A stretch of DNA of 64,000 nt from an uncultured delta proteobacterium (GTDB lineage Bacteria > Desulfobacterota > Desulfomonilia > Desulfomonilales > Desulfomonilaceae), in assembly GCA_963789265.1 (NCBI GenBank), contig CAWBKB010000004.1:1-64000 (forward strand), in the 5' to 3' direction. The notes beneath the pieces are model-generated. The model was not told where the DNA came from. It saw only the letters and a program-made list of their open reading frames with translations, and did no database searches. Shown one piece after another: positions 1 through 2,586 of this stretch (positions within the stretch are counted from its first letter, which is position 1; the number at the start of each line of letters is the position of its first letter). The position numbers and the translations under genes are program-made.

Positions 1-19
1 AAAAGGCCCTCTGTCAAGG

Positions 20-416
20 GAAAAGACTCTCCTGTAGCAAGGAAAGAATCGTTTCCTTGCTGAGGAGTAGGGCCGTGTTTCGCACAGCGTCCGTCAGCGC
101 CTGCTCTTCGCCTTTGCCGGTACCTTCTCTCAGGTGGTGTCGGTAGTTATCCTCACCGCACCAGTCACCCATCAGGATCAAGGCATGGACCTTAGAGGTC
201 CTGCCCCTTCCGCTTATTGCGGACCAGAAAATCTTCGGTTCCATGCTGTGTCCAAGAGGAATAGGACAAATCTCATGGTTTTGAACCAACCCTTTAGTGG
301 CTCACAGCATGGGCGGCAAAGAGTCCGGCTCCCCGGATCTGTGGGGTAGGCGGCTGCCCAATCAAATCTGGTGGTTTTTCCAACCCCTACTCAGGGTCGC
401 CGCCTACGCCAGTCGT
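20..416 (-). ncRNA. Putative IS1111 bridge/seek RNA region
   Basis: About 400-nt non-coding end downstream of the transposase. Two tandem stem-loops (346-407, 241-312) share the internal motif GGGTTGG..AAAACCA..AGATTTG. Confidence 0.65.
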
Positions 417-1436
417 CTAACCAATAAGCCTCTTGTTGTCAAAGGGAACTTGGTCCCTCATGATATAATACGCCGCTCGTGCCAGTTTGTGGCCCAGCGC
501 GGCGTGAGCGCACATACGGTTGGTCCTGGATACCTTCCGATCGAACCAGGCTCTGATTGCCGGATCAAAGCGCCGGGCGAGTTCCGAAGCTTCGGAAAAG
601 GCCCATGCCAAGTACTTGTTGCCATTCTTCTTGTTACCTGTTCCCTTGCTCTTCCCGTTGCTGGTCCAGCGAGTCGGAACCTTTCTGCAATAGGACGCAT
701 AGTTCCCCGCAGCCTGAAAACGACTTATGGGGCCTGTTTCAAGCATGATGGTGAGCGACAGGATAACCCCCACGCCGGAGATGGTCGTCAGGCAAGCATA
801 TTCCTTCTTCAATTCGATTTTCCCTTGAACCTTCTTTTCAACCTTCTTGATTTGTCGCGTGAGGAAATCTATGCTCTGCTTGCTCACCTGGCCGGTCAGA
901 GCCAGGTTCTCGTCCTGCTCCAAGAGCGGTGAAACAAGATCATTAGTCAGTTGTTTTATCTTGGCGGCCCCAATCTTCACGCCCATACTACGAGCGAGGA
1001 TATTTTGCAGGCTGTTAATAAGTGAGGTTCTCAGCTTGACCAGATGCATCCGTTTGCGTAGCAGGTCTCTCACCGGGCGCTCTTCCCGTGGATATATATA
1101 TCCCTCAGGTAGAATGCCTAAGCGTAACATTTCCGCCAACCAAAATGCATCGCTATTGTCATCGTAATGTTTCATTCCACTGTATTTTTGTATAGCGGTA
1201 GGATTGGCCAAATGCACTCGGTATCCCGCTTCCATCATCGCATCCACAACCCAGTACCAGTTGAAGGTGGATTCCACTGCTATGCCTTGCATACCTTCCT
1301 TGTAAGGTTCAAGGGCATTCAAGAGAACAGCCGAATCATTAACAAGCCTCCTGTTGAACACCCTCTTTCCTTCTCGCTCTACCACCGCCAGATAACTGTT
1401 GCTTGCATGAAGATCAAGCGCCGCATATACTTCCAT
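417..1436 (-). CDS. IS110 family transposase/recombinase (DEDD + Tnp20)
   Basis: ALDLH..., VEST, DDNSDA, ISGVG, catalytic-Ser region WTSNGK and GNKYL. RBS AGGAGG before ATG at 1436. Confidence 0.95.
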   Translation of the reverse strand: MEVYAALDLHASNSYLAVVEREGKRVFNRRLVNDSAVLLNALEPYKEGMQGIAVESTFNWYWVVDAMMEAGYRVHLANPTAIQKYSGMKHYDDNSDAFWLAEMLRLGILPEGYIYPREERPVRDLLRKRMHLVKLRTSLINSLQNILARSMGVKIGAAKIKQLTNDLVSPLLEQDENLALTGQVSKQSIDFLTRQIKKVEKKVQGKIELKKEYACLTTISGVGVILSLTIMLETGPISRFQAAGNYASYCRKVPTRWTSNGKSKGTGNKKNGNKYLAWAFSEASELARRFDPAIRAWFDRKVSRTNRMCAHAALGHKLARAAYYIMRDQVPFDNKRLIG

Positions 1437-1508
1437 CGGGCACCTCCTACGGTTAATGGCAAGTCGGGGATACCACATTCCCGACTCAGAGGTGCCTTTT
1501 TATGATTA

Positions 1509-1587
1509 TCAAGTCTGCTCTTGGCTCATATTAAGCCACATTTCGACGCATTGCATGCAGTGATGAGTCAAGAGCAGACTTGACCCC
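1509..1587. repeat. REP-like palindrome (TCAAGTCTGCTCTTGGCTCA ... TGAGTCAAGAGCAGACTTGACCCC); IS110 target
   Basis: 20-bp inverted arms at 1509-1528 and 1564-1583. The left arm is cut where GGGG would be expected. Internal part repeated at 19177-19234. Confidence 0.85.
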
Positions 1588-1590
1588 TTT

Positions 1591-1760
1591 CCTGGAAAAA
1601 AATGAGAGGAAAAATCCAGCGATCCTGGCTAGCCTCCGCTCGTGGTTCTGTCCAGCTCTGGATTGGGACCTGCCTCGGACTGCGATCCGGGGTCTGGAGC
1701 AAGAGTCGGAGTCCAGATTCCGTGACGGTTAGGGGATATGAGTCAAGAGGAGACTTGACC
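1591..1760 (+). repeat. 170-bp non-coding module B ending in TGAGTCAAGAGGAGACTTGACC
   Basis: Near-identical copy at 19308-19479; partial copy at 19098-19164. Confidence 0.9.
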
Positions 1761-1880
1761 ACTTTTCTTTTTTTTATTGATCGTGGACGCTGCGGATCGC
1801 TCTGGGCACCCGGGTCGCGAGACTGTCCAGTGCATCAAAGGCGCTCGGAACGATTTTTCTTCCTTACCAGTATTTTTTTC

Positions 1881-1940
1881 TTGACAACTCAATTTCATAA
1901 ATTTTATAGTTACATGAGTCTAGACTGGGAGGTCGGTCTA
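1881..1940 (+). promoter_or_regulatory. Sigma70 promoter and TetR operator
   Basis: TTGACA-18-TATAGT (1881-1910), followed by the palindrome TAGACTGGGAGGTCGGTCTA (1921-1940). Confidence 0.75.
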
Positions 1941-1971
1941 GAGGATGGTGGCTGCTCTGCGAGAGAGATCT

Positions 1972-2586
1972 ATGAGCAAAGACAAGAACGTGAAAGAAAG
2001 AATACTTGAGAAAAGTATTAAGGCTTTCCTATCCAAGGGCTTTCGAGGAACGACCACGACAGAGATAACCACTGCCGCGGGAGTGGCAAAAGGTACTCTT
2101 TACTGGCATTTCAAGTCCAAGGATGAAATTCTCGACGCAATCTTGGAGAAATTTCTCAAAGAGTTTATTGGGGGCATTGACAACGTGATCGCTAATTGTT
2201 CTGGGAACTTTATCCATAAGTTTAAGACATTTTTTAAGTTTGGAAGTGAATTCAGCCGTGACAATTTTGAATTGATGTTGGTTTATCAGACATTGCTGGG
2301 AGAAATCGTAGGGTCCAATTCGGAAGCGGAAATGAAAATGAGGGCCATTCAGGATCGCTACGATCATTTGGTCCAAACGCTTCTCGATGAAGGAAAAAAG
2401 GAAGGTGTTATCAAGGAGGATGTAGACACTTATATCCAAGCCCGGATTATGACCGCAGCTCTGATTGGAAGTTATCTCCAGTGGTATCTGAACGCAAGTT
2501 CTTATGATTCTGAATATAATAGACGTTATGCCATTGCCTTCAGAAAGACATTGCTGAAAGGGGTAGGAGTAGAAATCGATAGATAG
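1972..2586 (+). CDS. TetR/AcrR family transcriptional regulator
   Basis: N-terminal HTH: GFRGTTTTEITTAAGVAKGTLYWHFKSKDEI. Confidence 0.95.
   Translation: MSKDKNVKERILEKSIKAFLSKGFRGTTTTEITTAAGVAKGTLYWHFKSKDEILDAILEKFLKEFIGGIDNVIANCSGNFIHKFKTFFKFGSEFSRDNFELMLVYQTLLGEIVGSNSEAEMKMRAIQDRYDHLVQTLLDEGKKEGVIKEDVDTYIQARIMTAALIGSYLQWYLNASSYDSEYNRRYAIAFRKTLLKGVGVEIDR

Follow-up and report, generated by a model that had tools for sequence, protein, structure and literature searches.

RNA-guided recombinases of the IS110 family and its IS1111 group are under development as genome-editing tools. The element described here is an IS1111-group insertion sequence at the start of a 64,000-nucleotide (nt) stretch of DNA from an uncultured member of the Desulfomonilaceae; this stretch, the window, forms the beginning of contig C4 (CAWBKB010000004.1) of a 6.06-Mb genome (GCA_963789265.1), and the element lies in one arm of a repetitive extragenic palindromic (REP)-like hairpin. 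The closest described systems are the ISPa11/ISEc11 seekRNA systems (Siddiquee et al. 2024, PMC11187229), IS621 (Durrant 2024, PMC11208160; Hiraizumi 2024, PMC11208158), and ISPpu9/ISPpu10 of Pseudomonas putida (PMC12288879). In IS1111 seekRNAs, the match to the top strand of the target stands 5′ of the match to the bottom strand, with an overlap of the two matches at the insertion point (PMC11187229). These RNAs occur as a short form of 82–96 nt and a long form of 148–172 nt, and the passages that describe the latter leave its role open (PMC11187229; PMC13604230). A promoter formed at the junction of the excised circle is known for the family (introduction of PMC11187229). The bridge RNA of IS621 contains a target loop and a donor loop that are paralogues of each other (PMC11208160, PMC11208158), and its handshake guides, two bases long and adjacent to the core, read the other of the two DNA partners (PMC11208158). 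Bridge RNAs have been predicted in 93.0% of IS1111s, and the donor-binding nucleotides of many IS1111 orthologues are located in a multi-loop (Durrant et al., PMC11208160).

The locus in the window is best explained, with a probability of about 0.75, as a DEDD recombinase element with a downstream guide RNA of several modules, in which a first loop (module 1) would read the target, a second, paralogous loop (module 2) would be accessory, and a proposed third module (module 3) would read the donor. To judge from passages of the published accounts, ISPa11 and ISEc11 share with it a DEDD transposase of ~340 amino acids, subterminal inverted repeats, a long stretch of non-coding sequence 3′ of the gene, and the order of the guide arms with their overlap at the insertion point; the target of ISPa11 is also a REP sequence, and modules 1 and 2 together span ~165 nt, compared with 148–172 nt for the long seekRNAs. 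The present element differs from these systems in its clade and target sequence, in being known from sequence alone, and in its 423-nt non-coding end with the proposed third module. IS621 has in common with it the recombinase family (E 9.5e-11), a REP target, guide sequences in internal loops for reading both strands at a dinucleotide core, and handshake bases beside that core. In contrast to IS621, the RNA would be located at the opposite end of the element, its arms come in the reverse order, the core is TG instead of CT, there would be three loop modules instead of two, and no guide was found for one donor half. ISPpu9 and ISPpu10 are likewise IS110-family elements in REP sequences, and ISPpu9 also carries extra sequence 3′ of its transposase gene, parts of which occur as solo copies. 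However, repeated end boxes and a separate small-RNA gene, as described for those elements, are not shown here, and the solo pieces are from the right end only. A literature search on IS110/IS1111 guide RNAs, confined to text, returned no description of a role for loop 2 or of a third module, although one may already be in print.

Window positions 1..1509 (minus strand) carry an IS1111-group element of the IS110 family, as delimited by two full copies in contigs C1 and C7. Alignment of the three genomic copies with their flanks defines a full element of 1,514 bp. The window copy is truncated by the contig start, so that its final 8–9 bases (..AATGGGYGA) are absent, and because the window starts where contig C4 starts, the missing half-site is unreadable in it. 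The two full copies, found by BLAST, are 98.7% (C1) and 99.6% (C7) identical to it, and a tblastn search of the whole genome with the transposase returned three matches, all of which are copies of the 1,514-bp element, and no others. The transposase open reading frame (ORF) extends from an ATG at 1436 to a stop codon at 417–419 (417..1436, minus strand) and encodes a DEDD-type protein of 339 amino acids, within the 330–350 range of the IS1111 group. Both IS110-family domains are present, the N-terminal DEDD/RuvC-like domain (PF01548, DEDD_Tnp_IS110; 1.1e-15, 58.2 bits, cut-off 29) and the C-terminal Transposase_20 domain (PF02371; 5.9e-12, 46.2 bits, cut-off 21.3), and the protein is homologous to the solved recombinases of ISCro4 (5.4e-11) and IS621 (9.5e-11). 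In the ISCro4 alignment, its AVEST, DNSD, and VPTRWTS stretches are opposite the corresponding stretches of ISCro4, and the first Asp (ALDLH) is outside the aligned part. With 423 nt of non-coding sequence 3′ of the gene and 73 nt between the left end and the ATG, the layout is that of the IS1111 group.

The left end (1487..1509, minus strand), defined by comparison of the copies, consists of an extension ATAAT(CAT) and the subterminal inverted repeat CATAAAAAGGCACCTCTG. The right-end region (1..60, minus strand) contains a hairpin at 37–60, a TTGACA motif at 12–17, and, at 1–13, the subterminal inverted repeat CAGAGGGCCTTTT, which is cut by the contig start. The inverted repeats, CATAAAAAGGCACCTCTG on the left and CAGAGGGCCTTTTAATG on the right, each lie a few bases inside the tip, which is an IS1111-group trait. 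In the aligned copies, the left junction reads ..AAGAGCAGACTTGA|TAATCATAAAAAGGCACC and the right end reads ..GACAGAGGGCCTTTTAATGGG(T/C)GA, followed by CCCC in C7 and CTCAT in C1. The C7 copy ends ...AATGGGCGA|CCCC, with the CCCC that the original prediction expected beyond the right end, and the C1 copy ends ...AATGGGTGA|CTCAT. All three genomic copies are placed after ..AGACTTG, in agreement with the IS110 family, in which insertion is site- and orientation-specific, with a short core at both junctions and no target duplication.

The target is a dispersed, imperfect palindrome with the consensus GAGTCAAG-AGCAGA-CTTGAC-CCC and the stem GTCAAG/CTTGAC. The insertion point in the hairpin arm is ...CAGACTTG^A(CCCC), and the left end on the minus strand reads ...CAAGAGCAGACTTG(1510)A|TAATCAT. 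The left target half CAAGAGCAGACTTG occupies 1510..1523 (minus strand), of which TG (1510–1511) is the core common to both junctions; the intact, unoccupied partner arm GAGTCAAGAGCAGACTTGACCCC lies at 1565..1587 (plus strand), and a REP variant, GAGTCAAGAGGAGACTTGACCAC, lies at 1740..1762 (plus strand). Counted by sequence, sites with up to four mismatches from the consensus number 42 in the genome and six in the window. The three genomic copies all occupy an arm of the CAGACTTG type at the same REP position, so the mapping of copies that had been proposed returned one kind of site and no unrelated ones. Together with the domains and ends, these results bear out the earlier assignment of an IS1111-type element in a REP arm, and the coordinates and motifs first given for the ORF, the left junction, the partner arm, and the loops at 346–407 and 241–312 were all correct. 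The recurrence of REP-like sites was likewise correctly described. However, the original prediction distinguished two variants by a single base, and this base, at position −8, lies in the REP hairpin loop, where at least three states (C, T, and G) are common; AGACTTGACC occurs 35 times in the genome, preceded by C in 11 cases (CAGACTTGACC) and by G in seven (GAGACTTGACC).

Relatives of the transposase provided the comparative material. Of 194 relatives reported, 79 loci (numbered L001 and so on) with 49–91% protein identity were retained, from assemblies of Desulfomonilaceae, Geobacteraceae, Nitrospirota, and others. Of 68 recognisable left ends, 67 begin with TAATCAT, right ends finish with ATGGGTGA in 49 of 63, and the left flanks end in TGA in 66 of 68 and in CGA in two. 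In the L035 group, the right junction is GGGTG|CACT and the left junction is ..ATGA|TAATCAT; this mismatch indicates that the core is TG and that the base following it is part of the element at the left junction but of the target at the right junction. As a separate observation, the first core base is unequal within one element in the C7 copy (L080) and in L024, where the right end GGGCG(A) faces the left junction CTTG(A). Upstream of the core, the left flanks of the relatives are diverse (AGACTTG, AGACCTG, AAGCCTG, ATTATTG, AATATTG, TGACTTG, and others). The RNA alignment (A1) comprises 64 distinct homologous stretches, and the tests of loops against flanks used 50 distinct pairs of RNA and left flank.

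The 196 nt after the stop codon fold with a z score of −4.13, and none of 200 shuffles folds as well. In A1 analysed with RNAalifold, two stem-loops 3′ of the transposase gene follow a single plan of outer stem, CC:GG clamp, 5′ arm, small UGG..CCA hairpin, and 3′ arm. Both hold GGGTTGG...AAAACCA-NN-AGATTTG, one as CAGATTTGA and the other as GAGATTTG. Compensatory double changes occur in the outer-stem pairs in up to 28 sequences for module 1 and up to 13 for module 2. The alignment thus identifies loops 1 and 2 as real, conserved, and paralogous predicted structures, as the original prediction proposed. Downstream, a conserved element AACCGAAGAUUUUCUGG with a small hairpin (GUCCGC..GCGGA) occupies 204..240 (minus strand), and UUUUCUGG is invariant in all 64 rows. 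The linker between loops 1 and 2 (A1 columns ~100–130) carries AUAAC..GUUAUC in many homologues (L046, L060, L035, and others), that is, both senses of the left-end ATAAT, and the subgroup of the window has an unrelated UCCGG..CCGGA hairpin instead. A captured passenger module as the origin of the last 170 nt was considered and dropped, as this region has a similar length throughout the clade.

Module 1 (346..407, minus strand), delimited by fold, alignment, and co-variation, has a 5′ arm AGGGGUU (382–388, minus strand) complementary to the top strand GACCCCT and a 3′ arm CAGAUUUG-AU (361–370, minus strand). In the latter, CAGAUUUG is complementary to the bottom strand of CAGACTTG, and AU equals the first two bases of the left end. 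The pairing includes one G·U wobble; the single C/T change that was first noted between loop and site exists, and it is such a wobble to the bottom strand, not a mismatch. Over the 50 pairs, columns 71–77 of the 3′ arm pair in register with left-flank positions −7 to −1 on the bottom strand (paired 0.88–1.00). At the variable positions −6 to −3, the paired fraction is 0.92–0.98, compared with 0.67–0.76 after shuffling, and the mutual information of 0.82, 0.63, 0.61, and 0.48, in register, was equalled in none of 200 permutations. Position −8 tracks the flank weakly (0.58 paired against 0.43 shuffled). One identical guide adjoins CAGATTTG in L004 and CAGACTTG in L005. The right target half is nearly always ACCCC, and altered right flanks with matching 5′ arms occur in single lineages only, namely L008 (ACGCTAC with UGUAGCGU), the L035 group (TG-CACT with AGUGCA), and L062 (GTTTCG with CGAAGC). 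The UG of module 1 is always followed by AU, and, both being invariant, this is at most consistent with a handshake. The order of the arms and their overlap at the insertion point are the layout reported for IS1111 seekRNAs. On the strength of this co-variation, module 1 is the predicted target-binding loop of a seekRNA or bridge RNA, with arms that would read both strands around TG, and the guide RNA originally proposed for the 3′ non-coding end of the element is upheld to the same extent.

Module 2 (241..312, minus strand), recognised by alignment and co-variation, has the arms CUAAAGGGU (5′, 289–297) and GAGAUUUGU (3′, 266–274), and it follows the target over a much shorter distance. Its position −3 tracks the flank (0.92 paired against 0.69 shuffled, 50 pairs) and position −4 does so more weakly (0.78 against 0.64), and no tracking was found at −5 to −8 in the same pairs. 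Loops 1 and 2 carry the same base at −3 in 59 of 64 rows (shuffled mean 29.0) and at −4 in 37 of 64 (shuffled mean 25.4), values that none of 1000 shuffles reached in either case; identity at −5 to −7 showed no excess over shuffles in these rows. Both loops have also switched together in the sister elements window/L001, L017/L023, L013/L042, and L018/L020. The heptamer of module 2 is mostly AGAYYUG, and its AGA is nearly constant (A46/G46/A47 of 50) while flank position −5 is A27/G17/T6. The original prediction had proposed in advance that a heptamer invariant among homologues with different targets would be structural; by that measure, the heptamer of loop 1 changes with the target, whereas the AGA of loop 2 is near-invariant. 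A target-binding role is thus supported for loop 1, and loop 2 follows only −3, −4, and the core.

The further proposal that the two loops address different REP variants, CAGACTTGA and GAGACTTG, and so broaden the range of the element, could draw on the target-like heptamers in both loops, on the tracking of −3 and −4 by loop 2, and on the occurrence of GAGACTTGACC arms in the genome beside the CAGACTTGACC arms. However, at −8, the position that separates the variants, loop 2 shows no link with the flank (paired fraction 0.44, compared with 0.48 after shuffling) and loop 1 shows a weak one, which leaves the proposal unsupported. Elements located in GAGACTTG or GAGACCCG sites, with G at −8 (L048, L015, and L008), have the matching G in loop 1; loop 2 has U in L048 and L015 and also G in L008. 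In addition, the near-invariant AGA of loop 2 does not follow the variable −5, at least three bases occur at −8 among REP loops, and the placement of all three copies in CAGACTTG-type sites is explained by loop 1 alone. One loop per variant is consequently very improbable. Judged from the alignment, module 2 is a duplicate of module 1 that appears to have retained complementarity only to the TG core and the two adjacent target bases, and loop 2 probably does not aim at a separate REP variant. Its size and place would fit the extra part of the 148–172-nt long seekRNA.

Loop 2 could alternatively serve as a protein-binding scaffold without DNA contact, its likeness to the target being due to descent or to pairing with its own 5′ arm. 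In the RNAalifold structure, YYU in the heptamer (columns 191–193) does pair with GGG in the 5′ arm (columns 162–164), and in ISEc11 the 82-nt short seekRNA alone gave 42% transposition, compared with 15% for the long form, which is dispensable (PMC11187229). Nevertheless, G pairs with both C and U, so that internal pairing does not force −3 to track the target, and the agreement of the loops at −3 and their repeated paired switches in sister elements argue against a pure scaffold, which appears unlikely. In another reading, IS1111 elements of this clade would employ a three-loop guide RNA in which the middle loop is a second, wobble-rich target reader that holds the core-proximal flank bases. 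This reading is possible but doubtful; if true, the middle loop could hold the old flanks during excision while loop 1 holds the target and the third loop holds the right end, and insertion and excision would be read by partly separate RNA modules.

By analogy with the two-loop bridge RNA of IS621, and given how widely bridge RNAs are predicted among IS1111s, loop 2 could also be a donor-binding loop, the arms of which would pair with the ends of the element in the circle junction. Its 5′ arm is often AAnGGG, which resembles the right end AATGGG. However, the ends are invariant across the clade, yet loop 2 varies at −3 and −4 along with the target, and no in-register pairing of its arms to AATGGG-TG or TG-ATAATCAT was found by reading. 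A k-mer scan against the joined ends gave nothing above a reversed-sequence control, the 5′ arm in the L035 group changes with the right flank while the end is unchanged, and the full right-end match of 9–11 nt is located in module 3, not in loop 2. A donor role of loop 2 is accordingly improbable.

The proposed module 3 (110..184, minus strand) contains a clade-wide motif 3′ of the AACCGAAGAUUUUCUGG element, CCUU(G/A)AUCC-UGAUGGGUGACU-GGUGC.. (163–184 in the window). Its 5′ arm UGAUGGGUG-AC-U (163–174, minus strand) is a sense copy of the right end ATGGGTG and of the first two bases of the right target half, with a match to the right end of 9–11 nt. The structure was drawn by hand and then counted over the alignment: the clamp is invariant, the layout is like the clamp, arm, and hairpin plan of modules 1 and 2, and the inner hairpin (136–162, minus strand) shows 9 and 12 double changes. 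AC is the dinucleotide after GGGUG in the majority of relatives; L007 has CC, the L035 group has CA, and both L045 and L062 have GC. Among 31 distinct pairs, this dinucleotide is identical to the opening two bases of the right flank in 24 (shuffled mean 16.6; 0 of 2000 shuffles as high). These correspondences make module 3 a probable donor guide for the right end, with added handshake bases.

The AUGGGUGAC motif of module 3 could instead be a feature of the DNA, namely an internal second right end comparable to the repeated end boxes of ISPpu9, with which several kinds of circle are described (PMC12288879), and right-end fragments do occur alone at five places in the genome. However, no copy ends at the internal motif, as the three copies are all 1,514 bp long or cut by the contig, and the solo fragments begin well downstream of it. 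In three lineages, the two bases after TG change with the target flank, a pattern that would not be expected of a fixed internal end, and the motif sits in a frame like that of modules 1 and 2. An internal end is therefore quite unlikely.

Several points weigh against the explanation as a multi-module guide RNA. The shuffle controls disregard shared ancestry, and because the right target half is nearly invariant, the 5′ arms hold little co-variation signal. Module 2 mismatches the flank at −3 in L024, L061, and L075, and the right flank of the C1 copy is ACTCAT instead of ACCCC. A scan of window positions 1–2000 against Rfam at E up to 1 gave two chance-level hits to unrelated families and no matching family, and the public sequencing runs listed for the stretch include no RNA run. 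The outer stem of module 3 is weak, with pairing in 70.5% of cells and one double change, and RNAalifold predicted for the region an inner hairpin and a short local helix but not this stem; the bottom-strand guide of module 3 would be on the 5′ arm, whereas that of module 1 is on the 3′ arm. In addition, a guide for the left end (ATAATCAT) was not found. A wobble-tolerant scan of the RNA for 7- and 8-mers against the joined ends gave fewer recurrent hits than the reversed-sequence control and is thus uninformative about a left-end guide; inspection by eye of loop 2 (its 5′ arm, the tail of its 3′ arm, and the linker that precedes it), of the conserved GAAGAUUUUCUGG, and of the 3′ arm in module 3 found only partial matches, confined to some lineages.

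Some further observations concern the copies and their ends. The C1 copy (L081, G000 C1:1413343-1415060) lies between 59-bp direct repeats that comprise CTCAT, a spacer, and a REP arm up to CTTGA, and such a repeat differs from a standard duplication. On the left, this copy has the usual flank CAGACTTG, and its right flank ACTCAT is the right side of a pseudo-site, GCTCTTG|ACTCAT, in the partner arm. The arrangement fits an exchange between copies at two pseudo-sites or a recombination of a right junction with an empty site. Solo right-end pieces consisting of the last 30–110 nt occur at C7:313399-313432, C7:315044-315073, C1:349356-349458, C8:84387-84465, and C1:2327306-2327327, and a CCCC-like sequence follows each of them. 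In C7, the two pieces stand in inverted orientation and enclose a 1.6-kb segment with a frameshifted IS66-family transposase (PF03050, 3.7e-20). When the ends are joined, TTGACA (12–17, minus strand) is 18 nt from GATAAT (1502–1510, minus strand), a candidate promoter, noticed by eye, that would exist only at the circle junction. Contigs from four DNA runs, compared with the C7 copy, were short fragments, none of which was usable as spanning the empty site or the circle junction. Beside the REP cluster, an ORF at 1945–2586 (plus strand) encodes a putative TetR-type regulator, as suggested by its N-terminal sequence.

A possible mechanism can be outlined from these features. Excision would produce a circle in which the right-end TTGACA joins the left-end GATAAT, and the resulting junction promoter could drive the transposase gene and the guide RNA. 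Loop 1 may then pair with both strands of ..AGAC/TTTG-ACCCC in a REP arm, and module 1 would in this way place the element after ..CTTG in the 3′ half of the REP hairpin. Module 3 may pair with the bottom strand of the right end. Strand exchange could occur at TG, after which the two-base extensions would pair with their new partners. Wobble-rich guides, with U for C and G for A, could allow one RNA to serve several REP variants. Loop 2 may supply core-proximal contacts or a second protein-binding scaffold as an accessory to the long seekRNA.

The discussion of PMC11187229 leaves open by what means IS1111 elements recognise their own ends and what the long form of the guide RNA contributes. 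As the ends are invariant and the targets variable in this clade, the bases that track the target can be separated from the rest. For the genome, the element would be an ordinary mobile element in a small REP family. For the IS1111 group, the comparison yields three testable assignments, in which loop 1 may act as the target guide, loop 2 may contact only the two core-proximal target bases, and module 3 may act as the right-end guide with handshake bases.

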